Below, one piece after another: positions 4,179-64,000 of a stretch of 64,000 nt of DNA (position 1 is the stretch's first letter; each line of letters starts with the position of its first letter). Source of the DNA: Amoebophrya sp. A120 (lineage: Eukaryota > Protista > Dinoflagellata); assembly GCA_905178155.1 (NCBI GenBank), contig CAJINV010000005.1:860564-924563 (forward strand). Reading direction: 5' to 3'. Both the position numbers and the translations under genes were made by a program. Below the pieces are notes generated by a model. It searched no databases. It was not told the origin of the DNA and was given only the letters and a program-made list of their open reading frames with translations.

Positions 4179-7100
4179 CTACGTGACCACTTTCCCATTG
4201 AACTTCTTTTTTCTGAGCGCTTTGCTGACCGCCGCGGGCATCACCACGGGCGGCGCCATCCCCTGGAACGCGTTTCCGGGGATCACATCGCCTTCCCTGA
4301 CATTGTCGTCCCCCGGCACGCGCACCTGGGTGTCGTCTTCGTCGAGCAGCCCGGTGCGCTTCCTCTGCATCTTCTTCCCACCCCCCGGGGATTGTCGGTC
4401 TTCCAGCTGCATGAGCGACCGGTCGTGCGACTGCTGACTGGCGTCCAGCAACCCTAACAGTCCACCTCCGCCAGTCCCTGGCTGCATCATCCGCGACCCG
4501 CCGCGACTGGCCGCGCGCTCGTGCTTGGGGGAATGCGCCTCGTTCCAAATGTCGTGCAGCGCCGCCTTCTCGTCCTCGGTGAGAATTCCCCCGCGCTGCC
4601 GGATGCCCTCTTCGTTCCGCGCCCGCCAACTTGTCCTCTCCAGTTCGTTGTGCTCGTCGCCCTTGTAGGGCACGTACTGGACAAACTTGTTGCGGTCGAA
4701 GTTCATACTGCGTTCCTCCGCTGCGGCCAGCAGTCTCTCCTTCTCCTCTTCCGATATGACCGGTCCACCCTTCATGTGCGGAAAGCGCTGGGATAAAACG
4801 TTATCTGGTAGCAAACCCGGAATTATGTTGCCATCTGAATTATCGGGTTGTAGTTGCTGTGGTCCACCTCTCGGCTGCGCCTCCCCCTCCGTCATCGTGG
4901 GCACCGCGGTCGTGACTGCGGCTGGGTCTGTCTCGGAGACAACGGTGCCTGGGACGGGCGGCTGTTGGGGTTGATGCTGTTCTCCTACTTCCGGCGCAAC
5001 TTGTGTTGCCGAAGCTGCAGTACTACCTCCCGCAAGAGGTGGTCCTTCCTGGACTTGCACGTCGCCCGGGCTGTAGACCGCCCCACCAGGAACACCGGAA
5101 TCTGTGGACATGAAGGTGTCCGACGGACCGGTCTCCAGCATGCCCATGCCGCCCCGCATCTGCGAGAAGCCGTCGGAATTTTGGAGAGAAGCAACGGAGG
5201 AGGCGTTCTTTATCCTTTCCAGCTGATTCTGCAACGCTAGAGGAACGGTCCCGGTTCGTTGACTGAACTCTGTCAGCGTCTCGTGGTACGCGGGCCTAGC
5301 GCGGCTGAAAGCGTTGGCGGGGTCTTTGGCAACGCGCTCGCGCTCGGCGACCTACAGAGTTATTATTCCATACTTCGACGCAGCATCGAGTATGTTGATG
5401 GCCTCACATTAATGTAAGGAAAAAAATAAACACAACAAAAAAAAACGGATCGTAATAAACAGTGGTGACAGACTTGGATTTCGACATCCAAAAGCGCATG
5501 AACAACCTACCTCCAGCTCCACCCGTTGCTGTGCTTGCGCTTCTTCGTCTTTCCTCGCGATTTCATCCAAAATCGCCTGGGTGTATTCGTCCACTATTGG
5601 CTCCCCGGACTTCTTCGCCTGCTTCGACTGCGAAATCGCCCGGCTGTATTTCGTGACGTACGGCTGGATCTCCTGCGCCGCTTCCTCTCGTTCCTGGATC
5701 GCTCGCCGCTGCTCGTCGGTCAGCTCCTTTGGCCTGTATTTCTCGATCATGGTCTTGAAAAACCCCGCGCCCGGGCGGATCTTGTTGAAGACGTTGTTCC
5801 GCAGAATCCCCTCGCCAAACTTATCAAATGCAAAAATGTCTGGGTCTGGAAGAGTGCGAGTTTGTGATGCTGCAGCTGGATTCTACAAAAATCTGTATTG
5901 CATACACAGCAAAAGAGGTCCAGTTTTTTCCATTGCGAGTATAGGCATTTCTCATGCGGTATAGGCATCAGAAAGCCCTCACAAAATCTGTGACGCTAGG
6001 GCATGCATCACAGACATCAGGACTCATGCAAAATGTGCATGACAAACCTTGTATCCTTCCAGACCCAGACATTTTTGCATTTCATAAAACTCCGGCTCCA
6101 CGTACAAGTCTTGCACAAACTCCGGCTCGTACACCTTCAAATACTTCTTCCGCAAGTAGTGCACCGTGATCGGCATCACGACGCAAAACAGCAGCCCGGC
6201 GATAATCATGATCTGCGCGACGGGGGAAAAATCCTCCTCCCCATACACCGGCGGCAGGGGCGGCACGTAGGGGTTCGCCTTCGCGTTGGCCGCGGCTTCG
6301 GCGTTTTGATCATACACCACCGGGCAGTTGTACAGCTCCGGTTCGTTGCACAAATCCCCCGCGCCGCACTGCGACCACACCCGCGGATTTAGTGCTTGCG
6401 GGCGCAGGGCGTTCAGTACGGAGATGTGCCGGTTGAGAAAGGAATTGCACCTACCGGGATAGTTCAACGGAAGACCGGTAAGCTTACACACAAAGCGGTT
6501 GGTGTCCGCTTCCACGTAGGTCGTCACGCAACAGTGCGCGTACCTCCTCCCCTCCCGGGTCCGGTCGTTCTGGCAGAAGTTGTAGCTGGTGAACTCCCGG
6601 TTCTGGCAGATCAGGGGCGGAAAAATGTCCCGCTCCCGCGTCTCGTAGCAAAAGATCGACTTCTGCTTCTGTTGCGTCTGAAACAAGTCTGCAATGTCGT
6701 CCGGGTCCTTCTGCCAGGGGCACTTGTAAATTCTTTCCCCCCTCCTGTCGACCGTGAAGTCCCCGGGGAGCGAGTTGCACTTCGGCGTGGTGCACTGGAC
6801 GAGCTCGGTCACGTTTAAATCCCCGTTCTGCGCGAAGTACGTGTTCAATTGCTTCTCGCTGTATTCCGGACTGTCCCGGAGCCACTTGAGCCGCCGCTGT
6901 TTGATCTCCTGCATGGTCTGGAAGCAACCGACGGGGGCGCCGTAAGCCAGGCAGTAGCTACCATGCTCGGGGTCGTTTTGGACCTGCGCGACGCAGCACT
7001 TCGTAAACTTGGGATTCGGGTCCACGAAGGCTGTATATGGAAGTAGAATAGGGATTAGTATGCTTTTATTGCTGTACAGTCGTTGAAGACACCATACTAT

Positions 7101-10100
7101 CATACATAAACTATCAAAAACGACCGTCTGACAAGGAACACGAAACATCACAGATCTGAACGTTTTATGAAAAGTACGGTTGTTAGGATTGTAGGTCGTC
7201 GTCGTGGTCGTGGTGGTCGCAGGCCAGTGAGCGAGCGAGTACGTTGGCATTTCGGGGAAAAAATCGTAATCCGAAACGCAGAAGATTTCCTCCGTTTCCC
7301 GCGGATTGGGGATGTCCGGTAGCGTATCCTGAGCAAAAACGTCCCCACACCAGAGTCAAGTTGGCAACTTAGCAACACAAATGTAGAAGCTTTGGGAGCC
7401 ACGCATGACAAGTTGCAGTCCGTAGTGTAGTGCAGGTTCGTAAGGACACCCGCAACACAAATCCACCTGCTCATCCTGTTTTCAGCATTACAAATTCCAC
7501 AACACCACTAGAAATGCCTCTCACGGGGACCCGCATTACAAATGTTTCTGTAGATGCAAATCTGCATTGCAACTATGGGGTGGGGACGTTTTTACACAGG
7601 ATATAGCGGGCTTGGAATCACGCGGTTGTCGCTGGCGTCGTATGGATTGCAAAAATGTCTGGGTCTGGATGATTGCAACTTGTCATGCTCGACCTGAATC
7701 AGGCAAAAAACTGTGTTGCATGATTGCCAAAGGTTGCGCACTTTTGACCTAATCGAGATGAGGCAGTTTCTCATGCAGGATAGGCATTAGAAAGGCCCCG
7801 CAGAGTCTGTCGTGCTATGTCCTACATACCGGACCTCATGGGCCATGGAAAACCTGCATGACAAATCTGGCAATCTTCCAGACCCAGACATTTTTGCAAT
7901 CCATACGTCGTAGAAGTAGTTGAAGCCCCTGGTTTCCGTCCTGTCGCACTGCGTGTAGCCGTACCGGCGGTAGTGGCCCGCGGGCGGAGTCACCAGGCAC
8001 TCGATGGGCGGGTCCTTCTCGTCGCTCGGCAACGGCGGGTCGCAGTCGCCGCCGTCGTACGTCCACTCCGGGCAGAACAGGTTGAAGCCATTTGACACGG
8101 TTCCGTCGTCGCAGGTTCCATCCCGCATCATGCCACTGCTCATGCCATCGAGCAATCCCTGGTCTGTGCAACGGTTCGCGCAGTCGCGCGGAAGCTGGAC
8201 ACCGCCCTCCTTGGAAGCGATAAGCCGACACTCGAGGGAAGAGGATCTGAGATGCGATACGAATTAGTTTTGCATGTGGGCGGTGAATTCGAATCTTATT
8301 GCATGATTCGTCGCCCTCATTCGACAATAAAACTTGCAAGTCCAAAACTCTTCCAAGTAGTACCTTCAAATAAACACAAACAACCATGCATAGTGATCAT
8401 CAGCAACATCACCGTACTGGTACTTACCTGAGCCCGTCGACATACGGGTGCGTAATTCCGATCTCGTGGTCGTGGATGTTGCCGCGGTAGATACTCTATG
8501 AAATGCAAAAATGTCTGGGTCTGGAAGATTTTAAACTTGTGATGCTGTCTCTGGATCCAAAAAAAATTTGTATTGCGTGACCAGCAAGACGACTCCATTT
8601 TGGGCTAAACGGAGAGGGCATTTCTCATGCGGTAGAGGCATCACAAAGTCCTGTATAAATCTGTGATGCTCGTGCATGCATTACAGACTTCACGGGTCAT
8701 GCAAAATATGCATGACAAATCTCGCAATCTTCCAGTCCCAGACATTTTTGCAATGCATATACTCGGCCGCGCGTACCCGATGATCCGGTTTGGTTCCGCT
8801 GTATGGAACTGTCAGGTTTGAAATCGTCAAAGTTGAAATAGTTTGTCATGCATAAAACGGATACCAGTTAGACCTACGGTTTGTAGTCGGTGCATGACAC
8901 CATTTTCCCGGTCCTGGAAGCGAGTCTGTCATGCGGTTTAGGGCAAAAGAGCTGCCTTCTGTCATGCTAGTCAGCAGTCCAACTTTTGACCCTTACCAGG
9001 ACTATAATCTGCCTCCCGTGGGTCCTCTGCAATAGAGTCACTTTTTGTGTCGCATTTTATGCATTACAAATTATTTCAACTTTGACGATTTCAAACCTGA
9101 CGCTTCCATACGCTGCGGACTCGTAGTACACCGTGTCCGGCCCTTCGTACGTGACCCAGAGCATCTTGTCCCGGTTCCGGGTGAGCATCTCTAACCTGAT
9201 GTAGTGATTCCCCGCTAAGTACACCTGTTTTCGCGTCTCCAGTCTCTTCTGCAGCGGCTCGTTCGTCAACTTTTGCAGGACGACTTCCGAGGAGAGTCCC
9301 CGGCCGCCGAAGAACATCTGGAACATGGCGTCCGTCTCGACCCGGATCGTGTAGTTCCCCGGCCGCTCGAAATTCACCACGCCCGTGAACCGGGCGGCGT
9401 ACGGCTTGGTGTAGTCGAAATCGGGGATCGGGATGGGGTCCGACACGTCCGTCCCGGTGTCCCGGCTCCACGGGTGCTGGTTCGGCCAGTTCGCGAGGCG
9501 GACCATCGGTTTCCCGTCGAGTTGCACTTCGGGGTGGAACGGGGTCACGAAGAACAGAATCTCGTGGAACGTCCGGCCGTAGTACTTCGGTTCGTCCGCG
9601 TTGAGAGGCGGTGGCGTTGTGGTGGGAGCTTTGGTAGAGGTCGAGGTGATAACCAGGGGCGTGGTGGTAGTCGTGGTCGTGGGAGCGAGAGTTTTCCAGT
9701 TCGGCGGGTCGGTCACCACGATCGCAACCTGGTCCGGCTCGGCTTGCAGGCCACGGGTGGAAGTTTCTTGATCTGTCTTGGTCTTTTCCTTGTTCTCGTT
9801 GTTCAGGATCTTGTTTTTCGCATTTATTTGTGGAAGAGATGAAGCTTTTTCAGCATGAGGCGCAGGTGCTGGATCGCCAGCTTTATCATTTTTCGAATCG
9901 TCAGAACCAGTCTTCTTCGCCGGCCCAAATGTCCCGGTATACGTGTTCCGCATCACCGGAGTGCGCTTCAGGAAAGTTGACGGGTTGCGCAAATACCCCC
10001 ACCAGGGGTCGTCGGCTTCGAACAGAGTGCGGTCATCCGGATGGTCCGAAATTTCCTTGAATTCCTTCTTTTGCATCTTCCGCACCTCTTCGGCCGCCAG

Positions 10101-13100
10101 GTCTTCGGGCGTCTTTGTTCTTTCAGCTTCGCCGTTTTCATTTCTTTTTTCCTGTCGCTGCCCTCTCGCCATCTCCTTTCGCTGCTTCTCGGCCAGTTCG
10201 CGATCTTTCCGCTTCATCTCTGCAAACTCCTTTTCGGTGTATCGTGGCAAGTTGAAAACGTCAAGCTTCTCCTTGCCGGCAAGTTGGCGGTCAAAAAAAT
10301 CGCGAAACTGCTCTTCGGTCAGCTGCCAGTGCTTGTTTTCGCCGGTCATCTCACCTTCGCCTTGCTCGCGAGCTGCAGCTGCTGCGCTTTTTGTCGAGGC
10401 TAAATTGTCTTGCTCTTTCGGCTTCAGCGCTCTATCCACATAATTCCCCTCCACCTCTTCGTCCTTCACAATTCTCGCGTCGTAATCCAGAACCACAGAT
10501 CTTCCCCGCATTCTGTCCTTATTTTTCTCTGACAAACCCAGCAGTTTCCAGAAGTACTCTCGCGCCAGCTGCCGCTTTTCCTGCTCGTCATCCAGTTTCC
10601 CGGCGGCGGAGGCCCGCGGGATCTTCAGCATCTTCTTGTTGGCTAGTGGTACTCGACGCGTCTGTAGTTTTATGTGGTCTCCCTTGTCATCTTTCTCTTC
10701 CAATCCCAGCTCCCGCCGTAGCTGCCTCGAGCTCCCGATCTGGTCCACCCGCTGCACGGTGACATGCTGATTGAAGAACTTCTCGCCGAAAGTCTGCGTC
10801 CTCCGCTCCTGCGCGCGGGTGGTGTAAATGTAGTCGGGGAACATGAAGTCATACGACCGCTCAATCGGCCCCCACCAGTCGGCCTGCCACTTCGGTTCGT
10901 TAAGCGGAACGTAGGCGTTGCCGGGAACGGTGGTCCACTGGTACCCATGAAAGATTTGCAGCTCCGGAAGGTTCGGGTCCGCGATCAGCTGGTGGGCATT
11001 TTTATGGCGAAGGGAATCAACTGTCAAAAATGCAACGCAGTTCAAAGAAATGCTCCTGCTTGTGCAAAAACATCCGTACGAAGACAAATACTGCGCCTCT
11101 TGGTCTATCGAAAAGCAGACAAATTTATATCGCTATTAAAATTTCATACATAAAAAAATACCTCTGGCGTGTTCACCAGCTGCACCCCGATTCCGAATTC
11201 GATGTCCCGTGTGACCAAATTTCCGTCCACGTCGCGAATGTCTTGGCGCCACGGGAAGTCGTACAGCTCCGCGCCGGGCGAGTACCCCGCCCACCGGTAT
11301 TTGAAGAGCATGTGCGAGTCGTCGTCCGTGGTGATCCCCAGCTGGCGCAACGGCGTGCCCCGCACCTTGCACTTGTTCCGGTCCACCAAGTTCGTGTTGA
11401 TCAGCATCCAGTGACCGTCGTTGGTGAACTCGTACTTGAAATCTCCCCGAGCGGTGGCAAAGCGGGTTGTGGAAGATTGGACAGAGAAGTAGTCCTGATC
11501 CGCGCCGGTGCAGTTGTGGAAAACCGCCCCGATGACGGTCTTGACTGGGGTCGTGTCTGGGCCTTTGTATTGCAGCGCGAAATCCACGTTTTCGAAGCTG
11601 TACACCTTAAACCGCCGCGCAATCGTGATCCGGAGGGGGTGGAAGCCTGCGCGCATCCAGCGGAACCGCTCGATGGTCCGTGGGTGTGGCGTGGCGCCCT
11701 GGTTGGTCACTTTGTCGGAGTCGCACTTGATGTCCGGGATGTGCATGGCGTAGATCGAGAACGGCTCGCAACCGTTTTCCGTGTTGAAGCAGATGTCGCC
11801 TGGTTTTTTGATATGGTGTGGTTATTTCACATCATGCAAAAGCAAAACACGAACAAACTATTGCAAGCTGCAAGTTTCATCTCATGCTTTCATCAGCATG
11901 TTGAAGAACCTCATCATACTTTTACACGTACTAATTTGTACCTGCGGGAATCCGACTCGGGTACAAGGGGTCTTGGCACACCGTCGTGTCCGCCCCCTGT
12001 ACCCGACACTCGGTCCCGATCGCCCCGCTCATGTGCTGCTGGAGCGAGGACATCTTCAGATTCTGGATGCGCGACCGCGGTCCGCACGCGCCGTCGTTGT
12101 AGCCGAATCGGTCCCCGCCCTTGCAGTGGTCGTGGCCCATCATGAAATTGACCTGTGCCGCGGTGGACGTGAGGCGGAAGTCGTAGCGGCCCGGGTTCCG
12201 GATTTGCAGGTCCCCGGACAGTATGAACTGCAAAAATGTCTGGGTCTAGAAACTTGTAATGCTGCGCGGGGAGTGGTGATTGCTCTGTAATGCACAGCCA
12301 AGCATGAGAAGACAGCGCTTCTTTGTGTTGCGTTTTTCGCATGACAAACTGCGTTTTTGCATGACAGGCAAAAGGGTCTCTTCTTGGACACGCGTCACAA
12401 ACTTTTTGGCCATGCCTGACAAGCATGACAAGTCTCGCAATCTTCCAGACCCAGACACTTTTACATTTGATAGACAGGACGCCGAAAAAGTTCGCTTGAA
12501 AGGTGATGGTGCCGGAACAGAAGTATTCCAGCCGGAAAGCCTGGAACTTCATGTGCTGTGGTTTTAAAAGTAAAAATCGACGAGTAAAAAGCTACAGACT
12601 CGAATCTGGACATCATCATCATGTTCAAAAGTAAAAAAGTACGATCGGATCCGTATCCCCGAACACGTTCCTTGACAAGATCTCGGTCCGCAGCTCGAAT
12701 TCTTGCTCATCGCCATTCACAGCCAATAGTCGATACCCCAAACGGAGGTAGGCCGCCGATGCGAACCCCTCGCGATCTCGCAAGGGTGATCCGGGTGGCT
12801 GCTGCTTGGGGTACAGAATGTAGTCGATGTAATACTTTTGGTCTCGATGATCACGCCTGAACCCCAAGTCGACCCGCGCCTCCTCGACCGTCGGGTAGAA
12901 AACCTCCGGGTACCGGTCCGTGCGTTCGATCAGGTTCCATTTACAGTTCTCGGGCGTCAGTTTCTGGATCTCCATGCCGTCAACCTCCGTTGTTTGCACC
13001 GTCGGGACTTGCCCGAGGAAGGCGTCTTCGAGAGATTCGAGGTTGCAGGGCAAGTCGTCGTTCTCATAGTCGAGTTCATAATACTCCCCCAGCAACCCCC

Positions 13101-17946: not shown

Positions 17947-20900
17947 CTAATATCGAAACCCTTGCTTTCTCCTCTGGTAGTAGGGCTTGAGCTGGAAAAA
18001 CTCCTCCTTACTAATGGTTCCATTGTGGTCTTTGTCTAGCAGCGCGAAAATCGCACCGAGGTTCCCCGTATCGTACGAAAAAAGTGTTTCACTGTAAGGA
18101 TTTTCCAAGTTTTGCATTACAAGTTCGTTACACATGACCAAGAAAACTTGCCATGCGTGGTTCCTAAGGGAAAACACATTGAAAAACCCAATGTCTTGTA
18201 TGTGTAGCAAGACAAATAGTTGTATGCTCCATTCTATGCATCACAAGTTCACAGTGAAACAGTTTTTTCTTGCGATACCCCGTCCCCCCGGTGTAGTGCA
18301 GATGGGTCATGGCGTCGCAGAACTCGTACCGACTCAAGTCGCCCGAGTCATTTTCGTCCGCAATGCAGTACGCTTGCTCCACCGTGAGGTTGCGGGAAAT
18401 GAGGAAGTCGAGAAAAGTGGTTAACGATTTCGCAGTGATGCTATCATCCTCTTCGTCCTCGCTTTCGCCCCAGTACTCGTGCTCAAATTTGTTGCAGCTC
18501 TCGCCTGTATCAGCGACAATTCGGCCACCTGTAGTCTTTTTTTTCTTGATAGTCAGTGAAAAACCTTCCTGCCAACTATGTTGCACTGTTAGCATGAACA
18601 AGATCATGCTCTACTTCACTGTAACTGAAATATCCAGCTAGTCACAACATCCATACCCGCTGGCATCTTCTTCTTCCTGTACGCCCGGTCGCCAACGAAT
18701 TTGGATGTTGAAAACACACCACCCCCCGTAGCAGCAGTCCCCTCGCCCGTGTGGTCGACAGCGTTTCTGCGCCCGAGCCGCATTTTCGTTGGTAGAAAAG
18801 AGGAAAAGGACAACGTCCTTGCCAGTTCTTCGTTAAACTTCGACGCGTTCACCAAGGTCTGCTCGGCCGTGAAGTGGTGCTTTTTTTGCATCTTCTTCTT
18901 CTCCTCCATCCTCCGCAGCAATTCCGCGGCTAAAGCCCCCGCAGAGCCCTCGTTACCATGGTCCACAGCGTCCCTTCTCCGAAAGGCAAACGGCGGTGGC
19001 TTCGCCATCGTTTCAACCGTGATGTCTACTGCATCTGCTTGTTCTGTTACTTCCTCCAGTTCGGCTACTATTTTTGCTTTCGATCCATCCGAAGTATGGT
19101 CCACCGCATTTCTTCGGCGCGTTGCGAACGCGGGTAGTCGTGCTGGTAAAGAATCATCTGCTTGTTCAACATCTTCTGCGTCTTCCGGAGAAGATGATAT
19201 CTCCAGCTCTTCCAAGACTTTCCCCCTTGACCCATCACCGGTGTGATCCACCGCATTCCTACGGCGCTGGGCAAAAGCAGGTGGTTTTGGCAAGTGTTCT
19301 ACGGTATCCTCCTCCTTCAGCTCCGCTTCGATTTCTCTCTGCGACCCATCGCCGGTATGGTCAACCGCGTTTCTCCTTCGGGTGGCGTAGACTGGAAGTC
19401 GCTCTTTGGGAAAATTATCGGCTTCTGCTACGTCACCTGCTTGTTCCCCTATTTCATCTTCCACAGCTGCTTCCAACTCCTCGACCAGGTTTGCTTTCGA
19501 CCCGTCCGCCGAATGGTCGATCGCGTTTCTCCTTCTGGTCGCGTAGGCCGCGGGGGGACCCGCGAAAATGTCATCGTCCACAGCCTCCTCGTCCGATTCT
19601 TCCTCACTTTCAACGCTGGATTTGTTCAGCAGATCAACGACCGCCTGGACCGATCCGTCACCCGTGTGGTCGACCGCCCTTCTCCGTCTTAACGCATACG
19701 CCGGCGGCTTTGGCAAATTTTCCACAGTATCGTCGTCCTCGCCGTCTTTTGAATACGCTAGGGCAGCTGCTTGTTCCGCGACCTCTTCTGCTGTGCCGTC
19801 TCCCGTATGGTCGATTGCACCTCGCCTCTTCAACACGAAGGGTGGCGGGGGAATTGTAGCACTTTCGGCAGCAGAAGAAGTTGCTATCGCTGCTTCCAAT
19901 TCGTCCACGATCTTCTCCTTCGTCTTATCTGCTGTGTGGTCCACCGCATTCCTGCGTCTTTTCGCAAAGTCCGGAACTGGGCCTGGAAAACCGGTCTCGA
20001 TGGCGGACTCCAATGACGTCGAAACCTTCAACTGCGATCCGTCCGCCGTGTGATCAATGGCTTTTCGTCGCTGTAGTGCGGAAGCAGGTGGCTGATGTTC
20101 TGAATCTTCTTCTTCCTCTTCCTCAGACGATGATGTTGTGGCCTCTTCCTCCGAGATGAAATCTTGTCCCGAAGTAGTATTAACCGGTGCTTCCTGTTTT
20201 GCAAGGATCGTGTCAATTTGCTTTCTGTCAATCAACAAATTGTTTTTCTCCCCGAGAAGAGCTCCTACATCCGAAGGACCTGCACTACTTGATGTTCCAT
20301 CGACAGCGTTTCTCCGTTTCTGCAAATACCCGCTGGGCACCGACGCCAAAAACTCCACCTCCTGCGCCTCGTTTTTCCCGGTGTAATCAACCGCGTTCCG
20401 TCGCCGCATGGCAAACTTCGGGACCGGGGGCAGTTCGTCCACCTCGACGTCCTCCTCCACCACGACAGACAATTTGTTCGGCGGGCCGGTTGGGCGCGGT
20501 ATCGTCTGCTGCGTCAGTATCAACTGCCCCAAAGGACCAAACGCTTCCGCGGGCGACGGCGTCGCGGTGCTGCTGATTTCGGTGGGAGAGGAGAGAGAAC
20601 TGCTGTCAACAGGCGACCCAGTTTGGGTACTCGCAGAGGACGAGTACTCGCCGGGGGACCCTTTGGAGGTGGTTGTATGTCTACTCAAAGAACCGGGGAA
20701 GGAGCTGCTGTTGCTGCTGATAACGTTCATCTGCGGTTTGTTACCGTTGGTCGCCGCTTTCGACGATGTCAGCAAGTGCGCGAATACCCCCTCGCCACTG
20801 GACTTCGCAGCGCTGTTACTCTTCTCCGTGATCTTCAGCTCCTGCATCTGCGCATCCAACGCGTAAATCCCCGCACGGTACTCCTCGTTGCTCAGGTTTT

Positions 20901-45597: not shown

Positions 45598-48500
45598 TCA
45601 GTCCTCGTCATCCTCCTCATCGTCATCGTCATCAGCAAACAACCAGTCGTCGTTTGTTTCCACGTGCTCAAAAATCTGCCCGCCCGGCGCGAGGTCCTCC
45701 AGTCCTGCGGGAGCGGCAGAAGTAGTAGCTGTGGTATTGCTTGCTGCGCCTCCTGACGGATCCAGTTTCCTTCTTTTGGCATTATCGGAGGGAAAATTTT
45801 CGTCGTCGATTTCGTCGTCGTCTTCCATCAGAACGTCGTCCTCGTCTAGAAGACCACTGCGGAGTGTGCCGTGATTCGAAGCGCTGCCTTCTCCCGTGGC
45901 TGTCATCAACACGTCGTCTTCCAGAATAGCCGGCAAGGCGGCCCCGGCGTTGGCTGCAGAAGCCCCAGCTGGAGTAGTTTGTGGCTTCAGCATAGCTGCG
46001 CTGGAAGTAGATGCCGCTTGGTTCGGAGCTGCTGTTTTGAAGGGGAAATTATTTTTTCCTGCCCCTTTATTGATGATCCCGGCGCCCTTTTTCAAATCTA
46101 CACCGTCGTGGAAATCTGCGGAAACGATCCGCCCGTCAAATTTCCGCCCGTTGTAGTGCGACTTGTACATCTCAGCCTCATCCGGATCCTCAAACTGGAC
46201 CGTGACAAACCCTCGGTCCGCCGCGCCCAGGAAGGCCATAATGCGGACGGGAGGCTTCACCTGATTTTTGATTTTTCCTTTGCATTGAATTTCTTCGAAA
46301 CAAACAATTGGCTTCAACAAGAAACGCACTAATTGCCGTCAAAATCTTACTGTCACCAAAAATTTTTGCCATAGGTACGCCTAACGAGCACTGCTGAGTG
46401 AGGAGGAACAAGAACTGATAAACTGCAATTTTTTTGTACAAAGAAATACAAATACTAGCCATACAACATAGTCAGTGAATATAAAGTAAGTACTTTGTCC
46501 TGCTTCCCCGCCCGGCCCGGCAGCACGGCATCCCGGGCAAACGCGGCCTGCTGCGATTCCAACTTGGTCCGCGCCTGCGGGTTCCAGTCCAGGTAGTCTT
46601 CCAGAATGTCTTCGTATCAAATGTAAAAGTGTCTGGGTCTGGAAGGATCCGAACTTGTGATGCGCATTTTAGAACACAGAAAAATCTCTCATGCATAGGT
46701 AGCAAAAGCTGCCCACTTTCTGTCACCAAAATGGGGGACTTCTCATGCGGGTTCGGCATTGCGGAAGCTGCCTTCTCGAAACCTGTGATGCTAGAGCTTC
46801 CATGCCAGAACTTCTTTGTCATGCAAAAACAGCATGACTCTTCCAGACCCAGACATTTTTACATTTCGTACTTCGCGCAGTTCGTCGATGTAGCTCTGCT
46901 CCGTCCGGCCGGATTGGAGAATGGACTGCTTGTCGAACACGTTCCGCAACACGATCTGACACCGCAACTTCATCGCCCGTGCGCTGTCGTCCTCGTCCAT
47001 CCAGCTGTTCTGCATCTGCTTCTTCCGCGACCACTGGTTTTTGTTCTTCTGCGCCCCCGCGCCCTTCCCGGTCCAGTCCGCAGTGCCCCCGGTCTGCGCA
47101 ATCCGCTCCTTCAGGGCCGCCGTGGACAGTTGCTCCTTTTTGTACTCCGCGACCTGCACACTGATGAAGGACTTCTCGCCCGAATGCTCCGCGACGATCT
47201 CCTGCCCGTGGAACCGGTCAATGGCCTGCTGCACGGACTCCTTCCGGACAAATTTCACCAACCCGTCGCCCCGCGGCTCGTCCGTGCCGTCCTTCTTGTA
47301 CAGCTTGATGCTCGGTTCCTTCGTGGCGGGGTCGACCACGATGACGCCGCACTTCTTGAAAATCTCGTACAGCTCTCCGACCGTGATGGAGAGCGGTAAC
47401 TGGGACAGGTAAATGTCTGACACGTTCTTGCTCGCATTGTACACCCCCGCGAGCTTCTCGATTTTTTTCTTCTCCCGCCATCGCTTCCTTTTCAGTGCGT
47501 TTTTGGACAGCGGTTTGTTGTTCTCGTCGGTGTCGTCAACTAGAGATTCAGGATTTATTATTTTTCCACCCGATGTTGAATTGTTGTCCTGCTGTTGCTG
47601 CAGCGCGGATGCGGAACTAGCACTACCCGCTTGGGGTAATCTACTAGCACTGGAAGATGACGACGTCGCAGCCCCGTTTCCGACGAGGAGCGCAGAAGAA
47701 CTGCTGCTCGGTAGTACACCGTTACCACTAATATTCCCGTTTTTCGGTAGGGCAGCCGACTTTGAAGAGGTCGTCGCCACCATGGGTTCATCTCCGTCCG
47801 CAAATATTTCCTGCAGCACGGAAGTCCCTGGGACGCCGTCCCGATCCTCCGGGGAGCTGGACTATCCTGTGCAAAACAAGTATCGTACTCGTATAAATGC
47901 AAGTCTTGCATATTTTTCTTAAGGTAATTCAGCATGACAAATTTTATTTCTCATGCTGAAAAAATTTGCAATGCATTTATACGAGTGCGATACTTCTTTT
48001 GCAATGCATATGGACTGAATCTGGTTGATTTCTTGCTCAAGCTCCCTCCTTTCCTGTTCGGCCTTGACAAGGAGCTCATAATCCTCCACCGGACGCCAAC
48101 ACTCATCCACAATATCCCAGATCAACCTGATGTGGTGAGAAAAAATAATTTTGACTTCTTTTTGTTTGCTTCGTTTCCAGCAAGAGTGTATCGGAATTAT
48201 ATCGAATATAATCGAACCAACAGTTTCTTCGCAACTTTCCAACAAGGGGGGCCAGCGCGCTGTGAAGCGGTGGAGGCAAAAAAAAAAACGAGCGTAGGAG
48301 GAGGAGACGAGATCAACCTACTAGCCGATCTGTATCAGAGAGCAGAGGAGGTGCAGGATGAAAATAGCCCTCACAACATCTACTCCGAGGCGGAGAGCAA
48401 GCGGGCCAACGTCCCAGCAGGCGCGCATGAAAGATGATGAAAGAGCAAAGAATGAATTCATGTTTCATCAGAATTCGATTATCATTGTCAAGAATCGGTT

Positions 48501-52586: not shown

Positions 52587-54200
52587 TCATCTTATTCTCC
52601 AGATTCCAGTCAAGTAGCACATCCTGATTTTAAACATGTCTTTCAGCATGCTCAGCGTCGCAGACACTATGCTCAACTTCGACCCGGGGACTTCATGCCA
52701 CGTGACAGGCACTTCCGCGATGGAAAGACCGAACTGCTGTGCGAGAACCTGAAAGGTTAATAGTATTGCAAAATCCTTTTGAAACAACTACCGAGTATCA
52801 CAACCAAACCCCCGCCGAGATGCAAAATTTTTTAACTATCCAAAGCGACATCAAGTGCCTCAGCAGCATCTATACCACCAGCTCCAGGTCGAAGGCCCAC
52901 CGCTGTATGTGCAGGTTCCGAAACAGCTTCTCGGCCGCGTCCGCCGTGAACAGTTTAAAACCGCACTGCGTGTCGTGTATCGGCTGGCCGTTCGCCGTGA
53001 TGAGGAGCCGGACGAGAAAGTGCAGCCCCCACATCAACACGTTCCGGTACCAGGCTCGCTTCACCGTCGCCTCTTGCGACAGGTGGTGTCTGCTGCCGAA
53101 TGCGATTTGATGCTGCTGGTCCTCGTGTCGACGTTGTACACCTTCTACGTAGTTCTCCTGCACGCCTTCCGAGGTCTTTTTTGTCCCCTCTGCTGCGACT
53201 CCCGCCCCCAGCTGCTTCTCCAACTTCGCTAGGTCGGAAAATTTGGTGGCCCCGTCCGCGTCCACCATCAAGCGCCTCTCGCCGGTCGCGGACAGCATGC
53301 CGACTCGCACCGCGAAGCCCTTACCCCGGTTTTTCCGCAGCTTCACCACCTTCACGGTCTCCCGGTCGTACGTTTTCAGCACCATCAGTGCCCCGCTGTC
53401 CTCGCTGCCGTCGTCGACGACGATGATCTCGTACGACTTTTTACTGGTCGCGCCGGTCGGCTTCCCGTACGTCGTTTCGAGAAAGTCCAGCGTTTCCTTC
53501 ATCATGATCGGCAGACGCTCCTGTTCAGTTTTTATTTTGTCTTGTTCCAAGAAAAGGAATATCTCAAGTTCGTACTTCTGGTGTTCCACCTGCATGTGCT
53601 GGACGACAACTACTGGAAAGCGCTTTTAGGTGAGTGACAAATGGAAAAAATGCACCCAAGCTGCGTGTTACTTTCACCCAATAAAACACGATTCTTCACT
53701 ACCTCCTCGTTATACGCAGGTATTATCACGGACAGGCCGACCTTTGTCTCCGCCGCCGTCGCGTTTGCCTTTCCGAGCAAATGTGGCGCGATGTAATATT
53801 CGGGATCCAGTTGGTCAACGAGGGCTCCTTCCGGCACCGCTTCCTGGGACAAAAGCAGCCAGAAAACCATGCCGATCAGCACCGCTTATCCTGTGTAAAA
53901 ACATACCCGCCGACGTCCCAGAGTTAAGGTAGAAGAAGCATCAAGAACATTGCTATGTATAGACAAATTCAAACTAAGATAAGAAGCTCCCGGGGATCTT
54001 CTGCGTGTTGACAACTTTGGGCCCACAAGCACAACGTAGTCGCGCCCGGGCATGCAATAGATTTGCATGACAAATGAATGTGGGCTAAAAAGCAGGCGCG
54101 TTTTTACACAGGATACCGCAACGATCGCAACTACGATGGAGGAAACGACGCTAGACGTCGACATGGAGAGCGATGCGGAGGCTCCGGCGGTGGTCGACAT
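52587..54200 (-). CDS. ALG5: Dolichyl-phosphate beta-glucosyltransferase (GT2)
   Basis: N-terminal TM, LSVIIPAYNEE, YEIIVVDDGS, NRGKGFAVRVGML, DADGATKFSDL, AFGSRHHL, DTQCGFKLF, RWAFDLEL, EVPVTWHEVPGSKL, YLTGIW. Confidence 0.93.
53887..54115. mobile_element. Family B-like introner, 229 bp
   Basis: TATCCTGTGTAAAAAC / GTTTTTACACAGGATA; TSD CCGCT/CCGCA (4/5). Join VAIVA-VLIGMVFW. Confidence 0.88.
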
Positions 54201-54486
54201 TTTTCTTGTTGTCACTTCGGTGAAGCCGGAAATGAGCTTGATGGTTGTTCAACTGCGATGCTTTAAGCCTGGCAAGCGTTCAACACGACAAGTGCAACTA
54301 TGTGCGTCTTGCACCACAAGCCACCCATCTACCGTGGCGCTTTGCGACACTGCGGCCCTCTTCTCCGCGACCGCGACATTCTACACGATTATATTCGACC
54401 GTCGTTGCTAGTAGTTGTACTTGCAGCCTACCGGATTCTTTCTACTTATTTCCGCACAGCAGCTTGTTCATCTATATAGACTTAAA

Positions 54487-57400
54487 TCAGTCCACCTTTT
54501 TGTTGCTCGAATAAGTAGTGGCGTCACCTTCATCTTTCCCAGCCTCTTGATCCGGCTTCTGCTCCGCAATGCTCGTGTGCTTCAAGTTGGGGAATTTGTT
54601 GCCATTGCAATGCTATCCTGTGCAAAAGTATCGTACTCGTATAAATGCAAGGCTTGCATTACAAATCTTTCCATCAAGGTAAAACCGCATTACAAATTCC
54701 ATTTCTAATGCTGAGGAAATTTGTATTGCAATTCATACTAGTACGATGCTTTTGCAGTTCATAAATGCTGGAAGTAGGTGAGAAGCAAATACTCGCAGTA
54801 ATCCAGGCCCAATTGCGTGAGAAAGAAGAAGATCGGGAGGGTGAACAGTAGCTGTCTTTTTGTCGGCAAGAACAGGGACGCAAACGACAATCCGAGCATA
54901 CTTAATTACCACGTCACGTACGGATCAATTGCGCAGAGTAGCTTTTTTTTTCGGAATCCAGATGTTGACCAGCGCACGCAGATAGCATCGCATCGATCCA
55001 AAAAGTCAGCACTTACAAGCTGACGGAAGATCGTGTTCACATTTCGCACAATTCTTTCGAAGGACTCTTTGAAAACATGGGGGAACAAAGTACTCAGTTA
55101 GAAAAAACCGCCTCCGCGTTTTTGTACTATCGCCTGCATCTTCATGAGTTCACAGGGATCGATTGGATGCGCCACGGGATGCATGTTTTTTGTTTCGCAG
55201 AAAAAGTTCACTGAGTTTCTTTCTCTTTTGCTCCTTCGCTGTTTTTCGCAGAAGATCGCTGACTCCAAAAACATCACCATCAGTAGTGTTCGCTCTTCTT
55301 CTCACTCTTGTTACAAGCCTGCTGGTTGTAATGTGGTTGATTGTGTTTCTCCATTTGCATCTGGTGCAGCAGTAAAATCCACCATCCCCTGCAGAAAAAA
55401 ATAGGCCGTGTGGTTCTGTCGGAACGGAAGTACAACCAGAATGTCGTCCCCCTCCCCCGGTGTCGACGTCGCGGACCGATAGTTCGGCTGTCTACTCCGA
55501 TTGGTCCTCGAGCTTCTTCGCTTGAAAATCGTAATCGATATCCAAATGCCAGTACCACGATACCCAGTTCTCCAAATAGGCCGCATAGTTCTCAAACGGC
55601 GGTGTAGCTGGTCTTCTTGCATCCACGATGGCAACGTCGCCGCTCGCTTCCGCATCCCACCACATCCATTTCGCGACATCCACGTCGTCGTACATCAACG
55701 CGACTCGTTGCGCCGGGTTGCTGCACGCATTTGGAGCAGCAAGGTCGAAATACGTTCCGCACTGCGGGAGCGCTGCCGAATGGAAGTAGTATACATCCCT
55801 AACCTGCGACTTCATGTCGTGGTTTATTGCACGAAGATCGCCCAAGGGGCGGTGCCAAGCGAGCATCGCAGGAAAGAAGGGGAGGCTCCACACGAGCAGC
55901 ATCACAACCACCTCGAAGGAGTACAAAAGGCGTGGCAGCAGGAGACTCGTGTCTGTAGGTACCAGCGTCCCTCCCGCAACCCGCACAATCCTCGCCGAAG
56001 ACTCGCGGCCGTCACCTCTTCTTGTTTTCTTCGATACCGTTAGCAAAAGAGAAAAAAAGGCGCAGCCGAAGCCGCTGACGAATGCGAGCAGAACGGTCCC
56101 CACCCTGAAACGATAAATGCTGGGATGTGATGTCTCCTGCGGGTACACGCCGTGACATTCCGAAAATGGAGTTGCGAACAGTTTCGTCGAGAGCCGTCGG
56201 TCAAGCCGACGGTTCGAAAAATAGTCGTCTACCGCGCCGCCCGGTTTCCTGAATAAATTGCCGGCGTTATCAAAATCAAAAATCTCCCCTCCCCATATCT
56301 TTATCAAAGTGGAAACCTGTGCTGCGGCACTTGTGTGCATGTCTTGCGGTAGAGGACTGCACGCAGATCCTAAGCCTAGGCGGGGGCCTCTTGGTGTAGG
56401 CACCTAGCATGGCAGCCGTCTGTCCTGCAGGACGACTTGCAGCGTTACAAACCGCCTGCATGACGCGGCGAACTCTCTGCCTTTGCCTTCTTGCATGACA
56501 AAGCGGATTTGTGGTCACGAATCTGCATCACAAATTTTCGGAAGGATGCGCTTTCAACATGGGAGGGGCGGATTTTTCATCACAATAGATGTTGACGCCC
56601 TCGCCGACGAAAAGTTGCAGAGTCTCAGAGACTATCAACTGCAAACATGTCTGGGTCTGGAAGATTTCTCGATTTGGTTGGTTGATTGGGTAGCGCCTGT
56701 CGCCGGTGCACGTCCCGCCCTCTATCGATTGCGATCCGGAGTAGCCGGAGCACAAGGCCCCGGGACACAATTCGTCATGCAGCTTTTCGTCCAAGCTCCC
56801 CCAAGTCGGAAAGCATCACAGGTTCTGCAGCCCCTTGGTGATGCCTATTATGCATGAAGAAGGCCCTCTCAGCATGGCCCGAAGTAGGGGTAGGCACCTT
56901 TTGAGAGTCATGCATCAACGATCTTTGTGTGATCCGCAACAACAGGCATCACAAGTTCGGATCCTTCCAGACCCAGACATATTTGCAGTTAATAGAGAAA
57001 AGAAGCACACCGATTGATATTCCCGCCAATCCGCCGTGGATGGACTTTAGCCACCATTGATTTCGCACCCAGAAGGCTTCTTGGGCACTGGTAATGGGGG
57101 CGCTGCGCGTACTGGTGGCGCTTTGGTGCGGATCGCGATCGCCCTGCGACGTGTGGGAGTGTGTGACGTCCTGCTGTTGTCCGGACCCGACCGTAGGAAT
57201 CGCCGCGACCAAGATGAAGAGGATGTTCGGAACCAGTAACCAAACCATCCGGGCCGCCACCTCCTCCAGAGAACCGGCCTCAATCAAACCGGTCTGGGAA
57301 TTGGCAAGATCGTTCGTGTCGGCTCCGTTCCCCGGACACCACAGCGGGTACAGGTTGAAGGTGTAGCGACTGAGTATCGTGGAGAACGCATAGCAGACGA

Positions 57401-59201
57401 GACAGGAAGCCCATATCTTTCCCTGGGCCGAGCTGTGACTACAGCACACGTTTGACAGGGTACCCTGGTCGACGAAATCTTCCGGGAGGAAGTAGTAGGT
57501 CTCGGTTTCGACGTCGGCCCCGGCTTGTCCTCCGGGCTCCAGCTGCTGCTGCTCCCGTGATGTTTTATCTATCATCGTCCTCGCCCGCCGCGCCGTCGTG
57601 GGGAGAACCTCTAGTGTGTTCTTCATCGACCTGCTGGCTAGGGAAGTCCACCGTGGTCGGAAAGAAAACCTGGACCGACGGGAGAATCGTTCCGGCTACC
57701 ACGGCAATGAACCCAACGACCAGCAAAATGATGGAAGTAAGACTCCTCGCGCGAATCCGTGCGATGGTAAGGGCGAGCAAACGCTGCAAAATGATTTCGT
57801 TAAGCGAGCCCGCGTTGCGAACGTGAACAAAGCGGCTCTCCGTCGCGTTCCGTTCCTCCACGAACCGCTTCGCCGTATCCTGTGTAATGACGTCCCCACG
57901 CCTGAGTTGTCGCGCAAATCTGCATGCATAAAATAATGTTTCCCATGCGCAGCCACATGAAAGGCATTTGCTGATAAATGCTATCTGGGTGGAACTTGTC
58001 AAGCTAGAATCAGGATAAGCTATATCGATTTCTCACGCGGCTGCACCAGCTCAAGAGGATTACACTACGAACCCAAACTTGTCATTCTAAACAGAAGTGC
58101 GGCACACTTTGCCTCCCCCTGTGCAAACGGCCGCAGATGGCTGTCACGCAGGGAAGGTAGGTCAGGCGCAACAGCCAAAACTTGTTGGTTTGTGTAGCGA
58201 AGTCCCCATGATCTTGCGTCTAGGGAGGTGGGGACGTTTTTACTAAGCAGGATACGCCGTAGCGCTTTGATCTGCCTCCTGCTTTGCGCGCATCGCCCGC
58301 AGCTCCTGCTCCACATGTATCCTACAGAAAAGCCCTCCAACGGTACCAGAAAAAAAATGAATCTGTGTTAGTGCCGTTTGCTGCTTGAACTTGCTTCGAG
58401 ATAATTGTTCGCCGCCTTGTATGTAATTTAGAGACCTCCACAAGAAAGGCAAATAACTGTCCGTCGTCCAGAGTGCACTTTGTGGCGCAGTTTAGCTAAT
58501 AGACGGGTACTTCTACTTACCGAAAAAGTTCGCCATGCCGAACGGCCAGCTCTTTTGTGGTGCACCACGAACGAGTAGTTCTAGTTTTTTCTTTTTAATG
58601 ATAAAGGAGTTCTTTTCTGTGGCATACTTTGCTGCAGCTGCAGTGCGAGAGCTTGCACTGCCGGATCATCAGTCCTGGAAGCAGTGGTGGTCGTCGCGGC
58701 ATCTATTTTCGACGGGTCTCGGATTCCTTCCTGTTCTCGGTCTGCTTGAGGAGAGGCAGCGTCGCCAGCTTCCGCCAAGTCGGCGTGCAAAAATTCTAGC
58801 ATCTCGCTTGTCCCAGGTTGCACGGTACTACCGCTAGCCGTCTCGTCTTCCTGGTCCGCCGTAAACCTCGACGAGTCCTCGCTGCCGATTGCGGGCAGCA
58901 CACTTTCTGTGCTAGGGTCCTGTGGTGCGTCGTCGGTCCGAATAAACCCATATGTCGGTGACGTTCTTTTGACTGTTTTTGGTTCGCTTTCGCCACCTGG
59001 CTGCAGCACAAATGGCGTTTCAGCTTCGTGCCGGCGCGCGTGCTCATCGTGATTCGGTCTCGACCGGGGGACAGTCGGACGACTCAGCCGGGACGCCAGC
59101 AAGTGTTCCTCTTTCATCTCCTCACCCGCCTCTATTGCGCCATTACACGGGACCAAGAGAAGCAGAAACAGAAGTGCTCCACCAGTGGGGAATCTTCTCA
59201 T
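54487..59201 (-). CDS. Multi-exon hypothetical membrane protein with signal peptide
   Basis: Signal-like MRRFPTGGALLFLLLLVPCNG; several hydrophobic exon ORFs joined in frame across four introners; terminal exon ...SSNKKVD*. Joins near 57570 and 54900-55490 are unresolved, so this may be more than one gene. Confidence 0.55.
54614..54763. mobile_element. Introner family F, 150 bp
   Basis: Family F TIRs; TSD AATGC. Join LTYFQH-CNGNKF. Confidence 0.88.
56268..56587. mobile_element. Diverged (B-like) introner, 320 bp
   Basis: TATCAAAATCAAAAATCTCCCCTCCCCA / TGGGAGGGGCGGATTTTTCATCACAATA; degenerate TSD GGCGT/GATGT. In-frame join GEGVNI-GNLFRK. Confidence 0.7.
56633..56994. mobile_element. Introner family A, long variant, 362 bp
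   Basis: Family A TIRs; TSD GAGAC/GAGAA (4/5). Join GVLLFS-ETLQLF. Confidence 0.87.
57876..58254. mobile_element. Introner family B, long variant, 379 bp
   Basis: Family B TIRs; TSD CGCCG. Join DQSATA-KRFVEE. Confidence 0.88.
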
Positions 59202-60265: not shown

Positions 60266-60402
60266 TTACTGGAACATGTTCGGGTTGCCGCCATTGGCCT
60301 TGGCCACCGCGTACCGATTGTCCCAATCCTTACAGTTGTCCGGATTCACGCACGGGCTGCCGTACAAGCAGCTGCAGCCCTCCTTCATGGTCGGCAGCTC
60401 AC
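60266..60402 (-). CDS. Small terminal exon or ORF with a Cys-rich motif (not in the ORF track)
   Basis: After a GCAG acceptor: ELPTMKEGCSCLYGSPCVNPDNCKDWDNRYAVAKANGGNPNMFQ*, with coding-like third-position G/C. Upstream exons are unresolved. Confidence 0.55.
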
Positions 60403-61799: not shown

Positions 61800-64000
61800 T
61801 CAAATACTTAAACAAAGAGTCATCACTTCAATGCACGACGCAAGACCTTCCCAGTCATCTTGTTTGTGACGCAGAGTCGTCGTGTGACCCAAGAACTCTG
61901 CAAATGAATCATCATAGTCCCCTTCTGTATAAATCAAAAGCAACTGACTCTAGGTGTTATATGTAAGTACTTACCCTTCGCGGCGTTGGCCCAGACTTCC
62001 TTCATGCGCTTCATGTCTTCCTCGTATGTGGCCTGGTCTTGCTGAATGTAGAGGAAGTAGTTCATCTTCGGGGTCAGAGTGCCCCACACGCCCTGCGGCT
62101 CTTCCTGAATGTACAAATGCTCCTCGTCCCCAACAAATTCGCGGACCTTGATTTTTTTCAGAAGTAAAAACATTTTTTTCTTCATGGAACCCCCGCCCAT
62201 TACATGAGAACAATCTGGTGCGTCGTGGCAAATGACAAATTGCGGGAACACTTCTTTCATCTCATGGTGCGAATGAGAATTATTTTTCATTTTGAATGCA
62301 AGCGCGTGATAATAGAACACGACGAAAAAAATTGAAATTCACTGTTCTCTGTACCGACAAGTGCATGAAGGAGTTCGGCATGACGGCGGAGATGCAGTAC
62401 ACGTCGTCGATGTCCTTCTGGGTCAGTATCCTATGTAAAAACGTCCCCACCCCAGAGTCAAGATGGGGATTTTGCAACGCAAACCTTCAAGTTTTGGGAA
62501 CCACGCATGACAAATTGCAGGTTGTAGTGCAGTGCAGTTTAGCAAGGGAAGCCGCATAACAAATCGATCTCCTTATGCTGTTTACAGCATTACAAGTTCC
62601 AAAACACGACTGATAGTGATAATGCCCCTCATGGGATCGCGCATTACAAACGCTCTTGTGCTTGCAGATCTGCATCACAACTCTTGGGTGGGGACGTTTT
62701 TACTCAGGATAGTCAGCTTTCCGTCCTCTGACAGTGTAAAGGGCTCGGCGTAGTCGACATACCTGCCAGGTGGATGTTCAAAAAAGGATCGATCATCTTC
62801 CGTTGAGAAGGAGGATCCAGTTCTTGCGACGTACACTGCATGTCAAATGACAGCGTTCAAACGGGTTTATTAAAGGGAGCTATCTCATGAAAAAAGACGC
62901 AAAAGAACTCGCTAGTACTTGATGATGACATCGTTGTCTCCTGCCTCCTTCGGTCCATCGCGCTCCTTGACGGTTATCGTCACGCCCTCTAGTGTATCAA
63001 CTGCAAATACGTCTGTGTCTCCTGGAAAGTTCTACTATTTTGCGAGACTGTAAATGATAAGCGCACTGGAATTGCACGCAGCAAAGCATGACAAGTCTTT
63101 GAGCTGGTGTGTGTTGCGTATTCTCCATGCATGGTAAGACTAGTTTTGCAAGACAGGAAGAAGGACCTTGTTCTCGTGTCCATGCAACACAGCCTTCAGA
63201 ATTATGTCAGACAAGCATCGCAAATCTTGCTATTTTCCGGATCCAGACATATTTGCAGTTCATATGGTGGTTTTGTCGAGGCTGCCTTGCGCGCTGCCGC
63301 CTGGCCCTCGGCATACCTAGAGTGAGGTAGAGCATTTTCGGCATCCAAGTAGAAATTATACTTTCGTATCACGAATCGATTCGCTGGGTCGTGTCAACAT
63401 GCTCATCGACGGATCTGTTCCTAGCGCCAGCCGATTTTTATTATGATTATACATTCTTTCCGCTGTGCAAAGATCATAAGCTTCAAATACAGAATATCCT
63501 CTATTTCCGACATAGTAGAGTAAGTACGCTGCTTTCTTGGCATCCACTTCGGCCTTGTGCGCGCCTTCTTTTGCTGCTTTCTCCGCTTCTGCAGCTTTCC
63601 TGGCTCTCTCCTCTTCCATCATGCGCTCCCTTTTGGCTGCCTCTGCTGCCTCCTGGGCGGCAATGTCAGCGCGCTGTTTTGATAAAAATTACAACCAAAA
63701 ATCTGATTTATTCCTTTATTGTTGCTCCGGACTTATTTGTAGTTCACAGCTACTTACCGGCCCTGTATCGACACACGACGAAGACGATTCACAATATCGA
63801 ACATTTTTCAAGCATGTGATGAAGAGCGAGCGCAGAACAGAAGTCCTCCTCACTTTTAAATGACAAAAAAATCAGTACCATTTCCTCCGCCGTCTTGGAA
63901 AAGACGATGTCGTACTTTTTCCCGGACTTGGACTTTCTCAGGTGTGGGAGCGTCAGGTTGGAAAGCGACAAAAAGGAAAAAGTTTGTGATGCATTGGATC
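61800..64000 (-). CDS. Multi-exon hypothetical protein, 5' end beyond the window
   Basis: Exon-like segments (63356-63680 charged coiled-coil; EGVTITVKERDG; KLTQKDIDDVYC; VREFVGDEEHLYIQEEP) linked by GT-AG introns and two introners. Confidence 0.6.
62427..62711. mobile_element. Introner family B, 285 bp
   Basis: Family B TIRs; TSD GTCAG. Join EDGKLT-QKDIDD. Confidence 0.9.
62995..63264. mobile_element. Diverged family A introner, 270 bp
   Basis: TATCAACTGCAAATACGTCTG / CAGACATATTTGCAGTTCATA; TSD TAGTG/TGGTG (4/5). Join ASTKPP-EGVTIT. Confidence 0.85.

Follow-up and report, generated by a model that had tools for sequence, protein, structure and literature searches.

How can coding exons be interrupted again and again by short repeated sequences that offer no GT-AG splice sites, and what takes these sequences out of the RNA? 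The question is raised by a 64,000-nucleotide stretch of Amoebophrya sp. A120 (contig CAJINV010000005.1, positions 860,564 to 924,563; here denoted the window), in which a first-pass annotation had described about 25 intron-like miniature inverted-repeat transposable elements (MITEs) with TAT...ATA ends, a 5-bp target-site duplication (TSD) and no splice-dinucleotide consensus. The elements carry terminal inverted repeats (TIRs) and a 5-bp TSD, lie in both orientations, show no selection for GT-AG and are removed in transcript contigs exactly as element plus 5 nt. We put at roughly 0.58 the probability that they are non-coding TAT-ended miniature transposons removed from RNA together with one 5-nt TSD, likely at a fixed register set by their paired ends and likely by a spliceosome that lacks U1.

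Scanning for inverted ends with a 5-bp repeat on either side, at a TSD match of 4-5 of 5, gave 23 elements, whose TSDs were perfect in 19 and carried a single mismatch in four (41968, 53887, 56633 and 62995). RNA joints exposed two further elements with decayed TSDs, 56268-56587 (3/5) and 58318-58626 (2/5). The resulting 25 intact TAT...ATA elements, 148-379 bp long and with 5-bp TSDs, agree with the number first given; the window also has two damaged left ends (30691 and 33356) and, at 63943, half of an element (Table 1). Pairs with a TIR match of at least 17/25 and a TSD match of at least 4/5 numbered 21 in the window, versus 0-1 per shuffle (10 shuffles). TAT was found at 49 of the 50 ends, the exception being TAC at the sense 5' end of 46615, and A occupied TIR position 11 in 22 of 25 elements at each end, F3 and 42779 being without the A-run. 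Being short, non-coding and present in many copies, with TIRs and a TSD of fixed length, the elements have the features of MITEs, and 23 of the 25 have relatives in a second assembly. The six families first proposed are approximate, as grouping by core similarity gave four multi-copy groups and at least five single copies. All element-bearing genes are on the minus strand, with the elements in their coding frames, and opposite-orientation pairs occur within these same-strand genes (8802/30345, 41968/46615 and 57876/62427). The GT-AG ends of U2-type introns could be read in one of the 25 elements (25535), and 43506 has no G at either boundary; both points, like the sense-strand TSDs quoted in the first-pass annotation, checked out. 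A TAT..ATA pair at 11812-11918 was rejected as an element and sits within a GT-AG intron.

Transcript evidence came from contigs of one study with two samples, in which minor isoforms are invisible; the runs, denoted X1-X4, are guessed to be RNA, and the raw runs X8 and X9 placed 7 and 2 reads on the window. Between 53300 and 63600, the stretch passed over by X4 contigs was exactly the element length plus 5 nt for all eight elements, with X1 agreeing at two of these, and the same comparison showed that five GT-AG introns were skipped as well. At 18069, an X3 contig showed a skip of 214 nt, after a 128-nt GT-AG intron had been subtracted by hand. Thus the TSD-bounded junctions that had been predicted were used at all eight elements, and neither retention nor use of nearby cryptic GT-AG sites was seen there in the transcript contigs. 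Loose ends of RNA contigs carry element sequence of other loci, indicating that some unspliced or excised element RNA exists. Moreover, splicing remained exact where the TSD had decayed to 2/5 (58318), and therefore the direct repeat is not the splice signal.

A hairpin flanked by direct repeats is a classic substrate for template switching, and joints of this kind could arise as artefacts of reverse transcriptase crossing the hairpin between the repeats, or could reflect excision of the elements from DNA. The hairpin and repeats would suit such switching, the RNA nature of X1-X4 is a guess, and the table of joints gives 15 of 234 rows and is crowded with cross-element joints of X5. However, the joint at 58318 has no usable repeat, and once the elements are removed a TBC protein of 1332 aa is recovered, whose alignment with distant homologues has no gaps. 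In X3, GT-AG introns are missing from the contigs and there is a poly(T) loose end, whereas run X5 is DNA-like: it covers introns evenly, its contigs extend into elements, and no element-plus-5 joint occurs in X5 among those 15 of 234 joints. We regard an artefact or DNA excision as very improbable.

The reading frames of the host genes point the same way. Removal of element plus 5 nt opens a 1358-codon frame over four elements, with a TBC domain, a 637-codon kinase frame over two, and others. The TBC gene model is identical over 1332 residues to P0001, a protein named Amoebophrya sp. A120, given at least four upstream TSD bases at 41968, and P0016, also named A120, is 100% identical over the query. 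At 43506, no gap separates the product of removal from any of six other homologues in the alignment. When removal of +2, +5, +8 and +11 was compared in alignments with A25 orthologues, +5 was best at 8 of 10 junctions; it was not best at 41787 and 41968, where the stretch is poorly conserved. The claim that the frame is restored only by removing element plus one TSD needs amending, as frame cannot tell +5 from +2 or +8; it is the RNA joints that show +5 (8/8). Likewise, the statement that every intact element lies in a coding exon stands within the window, where the 54614 site is putatively coding, by virtue of an 85-aa open reading frame (ORF) of no known family.

A larger sample of related elements was obtained by a TIR-pattern search of metagenome contigs, which gave 152 loci of 157 stretches (610 kb, one assembly prefix; L001-L152); these share no unique sequence with the window and may not be of the same strain. 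In a strict coding test, 162 of 255 related elements passed after removal of element plus 5 nt, compared with 41 at +4, 56 at +3 and 123 of 419 random sites, and hence an always exonic position is shown for the window only. In a set of 458 TIR pairs no longer than 700 bp, counting nested and crossed ones, an exact direct repeat measured 5 bp in 267 cases, 4 bp in one and 6 bp in one. The TSDs showed no target motif, 238 of 281 being distinct. We oriented 228 of 355 elements with a codon model, which in cross-validation on the window was right 18 times and wrong once (margin >5); intron phases over the oriented elements were 74/74/80, and family members were split about 50:50 in orientation, for example 31:25. 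The occurrence of both orientations implies that the signal lies in the symmetric ends.

To which bases, then, are the cuts tied? Denoting by k the number of upstream TSD bases retained in the exon, a perfect TSD hides the cut site and an imperfect one reveals it. The values allowed were 4 alone at 58318, 4-5 at 56268 and 62995, 1-6 at 53887 and 56633, and wider ranges including 4 at the other three, making k=4 the sole value common to the eight RNA joints. P0001 requires k of at least 4 at 41968, 25535 reads GT-AG at k=4, and removal at k=4 rebuilds the pre-insertion exon exactly. The k=4 intron consists of one TSD base, TAT...ATA and four TSD bases; the 5' cut precedes TAT by 1 nt, so that donors read N-U-A-U, and the 3' cut lies 4 nt beyond ATA. 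The cuts are thus likely fixed at one register relative to the paired ends, in part by direct observation, and not free within the TSD. The direction of TSD mismatches, considered as a guide to register, was uninformative in the larger set.

Published junctions agree with this register. In Table S4 of Farhat 2021 (PMC7789003), as far as that table goes, all nine of the commonest A120 non-canonical types start with NT (GT, CT, AT, TT) and none is TA-NN/NN-TA, and all nine A25 types begin with TT; the agreement with k=4 is subject to aligners placing ambiguous junctions by their own rules. The legend of Fig. S23 in the same article gives the distance of the A120 repeats to the splice sites as "1-5" nucleotides, and that figure may already display the same offset. 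Neither a fixed register nor a strand-specific U+2 was found in the article texts searched, a search in which the figures of Farhat 2021 (Fig. 3, S19-S25) were outside the scope.

Is there, then, a consensus at the ends? The earlier claim of no dinucleotide consensus survives at intron position +1 and at the acceptor. An apparent preference for G at +1 in the window (11/25, p=0.11) was gone in 186 perfect-TSD related elements (0.32 versus a background of 0.30), in which acceptor AG occurred in 16 (14.6 expected), GT-AG in seven, and no base was preferred at the exon start. A preference for G at +5, seen as 5' TATG in 9 of 11 asymmetric window elements, was reversed in the larger set (39 versus 54). 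At the second and third intron bases the claim fails: in the register that fits the RNA, all 25 elements have U and A there, a count that is partly a matter of construction since the elements were found through their TAT/TAC ends. When ends were sought without requiring TAT, TAT was still found at 435, TAC at five and TAG at one of 448. The terminal triplet was changed in 19 of 304 elements, four of them not orientable. In oriented elements, positions 1-2 were changed once on the sense 5' side and eight times on the sense 3' side (p=0.04; 0:5 for position 1 by itself), and position 3 four times at 5' and twice at 3'. These modest numbers hint that U+2 is constrained on the donor side only, in a strand-specific manner. 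A transposase is blind to the direction of transcription, which counts for the strand-specific reading of the position 1-2 changes. Ordinary donors read GTA in nine of the ten GT-AG introns with RNA support.

The first-pass annotation had proposed that TIR pairing or a bound factor, rather than U1/U2AF consensus, defines the splice sites. The TSD-bounded joints, the lack of selection for G at +1 or for acceptor AG, and the two orientations favor this, but it has to be qualified by cuts that are likely fixed and a U+2 that is apparently constrained. Folded with 30 nt of flank, 23 of the 25 window elements had their inner TIRs predicted to pair in register, with a frequent predicted internal loop at TIR positions 4-8. 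Alternatively, the ends might be marked by a protein bound to the TIR sequence (TAT, variable bases 4-8, A-run), RNA pairing being a by-product of DNA symmetry. This would accord with the weak stem of 43506 and with the pattern of divergence between ends: of 224 elements, roughly half or more have unlike bases at positions 4, 5 and 7, whereas 1-3 and 8-11 are kept. Yet the inner TIRs vary from family to family while remaining complementary within each element, and the arms of old elements stay complementary though the TSD decays, and we consider such a protein improbable.

We therefore favor pairing of the ends. The inner TIR stem (positions 9-25) would draw the ends together and take the place of U1/U2AF in end definition, and the catalytic core would still read U+2 of the donor, probably with A+3, as in the GUA of ordinary introns. 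The 3' cut would be measured from the hairpin without need of sequence. With one cut 1 nt upstream of the hairpin and the other 4 nt downstream of it, the element would leave with one TSD and the exon would be restored. The A120 strain lacks U1 and keeps U2, U4, U5, U6 and 83 of 89 spliceosomal proteins, according to the text of Farhat 2021 (PMC7789003), and strain Kv, which has GT-AG introns only, possesses U1. The match of U+2/A+3 to ordinary donors, together with this distribution of U1, is why we favor a U1-less spliceosome.

The same elements in the same register could also be excised by a separate structure-guided nuclease and joined by a ligase, as proposed for the nonconventional introns of euglenids, which are released as circles. 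Such a route would fit the lack of constraint at +1, -1 and -2 and of an orientation-specific branch signal, and Euglena introns, in the published account, obey a similar rule of spacers and a paired triplet, with machinery that is unknown there. On the other hand, U+2/A+3 coincide with ordinary donors (GTA 9/10) and with the TT(A) donors of A25, loss of U1 tracks the non-canonical introns, and the non-canonical MITE introns of Fritillaria are described as spliceosomal. A nuclease and ligase thus seem to us a rather unlikely explanation.

Removal by a U1-less spliceosome at a fixed register has several results to contend with. All 16 combinations of first and last base were present in the 186 elements, which the usual G-G contact of the second step does not predict (the first/last-base table departs from independence at p=0.014, with dinucleotide bias uncontrolled, and no inference was drawn from it), and no orientation-specific branch-point signal was found in the related elements. 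The strand bias amounts to nine elements oriented by the codon model and not by RNA; two of the nine are one duplicated site (L070), and L004 disagrees with its neighbors. A change at 5' A+3 exists (L034), every base of the 3' AUA is altered in at least one related element, and TAT is also needed for transposition. The terminal 3 bp were predicted to pair in 19 of 25 elements, and 43506 and 57876 were not predicted to pair in register. The register is exact at one joint, 58318, which itself starts with GT and so is possibly special; k=4 and k=5 may therefore both occur, the latter being allowed at the other seven. For the insertion side, the six longest related elements have 35 listed ORFs, of which the 30 searched showed no transposase domain, and the text of Farhat 2021 (PMC7789003) reports none found in A120.

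Insertion would be the work of an integrase-type DDE transposase of the Ginger / IS3EU-GingerRoot group, acting in trans with a 5-nt stagger and no sequence preference, the candidate enzyme being taken from the literature; it is the TA..TA ends that indicate this group. One enzyme may serve all families, as the first-pass annotation had proposed. No transposase domain was found in 20 window ORFs, and viral contigs gave no TIR match. The text of Kojima and Bao 2023 (PMC10045372) gives IS3EU/GingerRoot elements TA..TA termini, occasionally TG..CA, and Ginger2 a TSD of 4-5 bp; the TSD of IS3EU/GingerRoot, in contrast, is usually 6 bp, versus the 267 cases of 5 bp and one of 6 bp here. Among the 58 introner families of A120 counted by Gozashti 2025 (PMC12130899), fam38 is listed as "Ginger" with "5-bp TSD, TA/TA Termini"; it is ~810 bp long and has LTR/integrase-like ORFs, whereas the window elements carry none, and the likeness is one of published description. 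In our own sets, the rare TGT termini all stand at the sense 3' end (63943 in the window; L013, L057 and L070). TGT ends are typical of Ginger and of LTR integrases. A few terminal 8-mers recur among families with different inner TIRs, in L001-L152 and the window together, and may point to common ancestry or to exchanged ends.

Table 1. Elements and element remnants of the window (F1-F4, family labels; A25, included in the A25 orthologue comparison).
Feature	Position	Strand	Repeat, host gene and transcript remarks
Element F1	5822..6086	-	Perfect TSD; large PA14-domain gene; element+5 best versus A25 orthologue P0015
Element F2	7325..7603	-	Perfect TSD; A25
Element F1	7641..7905	-	Perfect TSD; TIR match 25/25; A25
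Element F1	8497..8759	-	Perfect TSD; A25
Element F3	8802..9110	-	Perfect TSD; opposite to 30345; X3 contig piece starts at 9111; A25
Element, F1-type ends	12222..12472	-	Perfect TSD; A25
Element, single copy in window	18069..18277	-	X3 contig coordinates, 214-nt skip
Element F2	25535..25813	-	Sole GT-AG-readable element, in the fixed register only; X3 piece ends at 25529; kinase gene
Element F1	25865..26125	-	Perfect TSD
Element F3	30345..30652	-	Lipase gene
Damaged F1 element	30691..31389	-	Internal insert, no ATA end; rearranged lipase locus
Truncated copy of an end of element 34485	33356..33488	-	
Element F1	34485..34746	-	Lipase gene
Element F4	41787..41938	-	TBC-domain gene; A25
Element, F1 subgroup	41968..42219	-	TSD mismatch at position 4; annotated P0001 needs at least 4 upstream TSD bases (second-hand evidence); A25
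Element, single copy in window	42779..43030	-	A25
Element, no G at either boundary	43506..43671	-	Inside TBC domain; weak TIR, 13/25
Element, sense 5' TAC	46615..46870	-	Opposite to 41968
Element F4	47863..48010	-	RRM gene
Element	53887..54115	-	TSD mismatch at position 1; GT2 glycosyltransferase gene; RNA skip 234 nt
Element F4	54614..54763	-	RNA skip 155 nt
Older element	56268..56587	-	TSD 3/5; RNA skip 325 nt, 1 ambiguous base; two registers possible
Element	56633..56994	-	TSD mismatch at position 1; RNA skip 367 nt
Element F2	57876..58254	-	Opposite to 62427; RNA skip 384 nt
Older element	58318..58626	-	TSD 2/5; RNA skip 314 nt, 0 ambiguous; intron 58314-58627 fixes register
Element F2	62427..62711	-	RNA skip 290 nt in both runs (X4, X1)
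Element	62995..63264	-	TSD mismatch at position 4; RNA skip 275 nt in both runs; two registers possible
Half element, F3-like sense 3' end	63943..64000	-	TGT terminus; remainder beyond window

The lipase gene is rearranged between 30653 and 34484, where four copies of a 38-nt exon are 100% identical. One exon copy, at 31961-32012, is a 52-nt match to the sequence without either flanking element, and the copies at 33316 and 34442 are without the 30345 element; these copies could be RNA-templated repair, precise loss of an element or an assembly error. The lipase paralogue P0017 is gap-free against a 616-aa model that requires 30686-34746 to be taken out as one 4-kb intron bounded by TIRs and TSD, and at this 4-kb stretch the annotated P0016 has a 5-residue duplication.

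Other observations concern transcripts and neighboring sequence. In 7 of 10 RNA-supported GT-AG introns (15011-16634 and 53519-63525) the downstream exon starts with GT, and in four cases with GTATG, so the first intron bases recur after the acceptor. A GT-AG intron of 1572 nt at 60400-61973 harbors a separate unspliced X1 contig of 1393 nt, whose ORFs have no Pfam match. At 54115-54947, an X4 contig links the small ORF containing 54614 to the downstream glycosyltransferase gene, and X1 covers the small-ORF region only; the small ORF is either a separate gene or a long leader. A local duplication of ~100 nt at 22200-22600, with no element, accounts for a break in an X5 contig. The exon that hosts the 18069 element is presumably EF-hand-like. 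The region 50300-52300 is GC-rich (to 70%) with long ORFs on both strands and no Pfam or Rfam match, an 891-codon ORF at 18616-21291 contains about a dozen degenerate short arginine-rich repeats and has no Pfam match, and Rfam gave no match anywhere in the window.

The class itself is known, as the first-pass annotation had said, the TAT end, the 5-bp repeat, the missing U1 and a Ginger-like candidate all being in print. The text of Farhat 2021 (PMC7789003) describes the A120 elements as MITE-like, of ~240 nt, with an inverted repeat of TAT, 7 nt and an A-run and with direct repeats of 3-5 nt. The window elements share with these introners the TAT/A-run inverted repeat, direct repeats (5 bp in the legend of Fig. 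S19), non-GT-AG joints (8/8), occurrence as repeated families in the genome and host proteins named A120. In that text the position of the splice sites with respect to the hairpin is variable or unknown, and no dinucleotide signature is reported, whereas here a strict 5-bp TSD and one fitting register were found. Taken furthest, this would amount to a single code, N-UAU ... AUA-NNNN, for all A120 introners: a hairpin would serve as a ruler whose spacers of 1 nt and 4 nt make up the 5-nt TSD, so that removal is scarless at any exonic site and in either orientation; a U1-less spliceosome would have dropped G+1, AG and the terminal base pair and kept only U+2/A+3; and the reported lack of consensus would be an effect of aligning through the TSD. 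To this broader proposal we give slightly less than an even chance. The fixed register is a modest refinement of a known class and a testable rule. If it holds genome-wide, "no consensus" becomes a precise code and tens of thousands of introns would have their annotated boundaries corrected; and, because the two spacers sum to the TSD length, it would explain how exons are invaded at no cost to the protein.

Two other systems resemble this one in part. The nonconventional introns of Euglena, as given in the text of Nomura 2025 (PMC12501133), also lack GT-AG and end at fixed spacers from a base-paired triplet. However, in their rule the 5' spacer is 3 nt long and the 3' spacer 5-6 nt, the triplets pair as CDG/CHG and the exon begins with a purine, whereas the window elements have spacers of 1 nt and 4 nt, pair UAU with AUA and can be followed by any base. 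The MITE-derived introns of Fritillaria borealis, in the accounts available (PMC11282704, PMC13326754), likewise descend from transposons with TIRs and a TSD and are spliced despite non-GT-AG ends. Fritillaria prefers AG-AC/AG-AT ends, keeps a modified U1 and has duplicated U2AF, whereas A120 is without U1 and its preference at the ends is limited to U+2/A+3.

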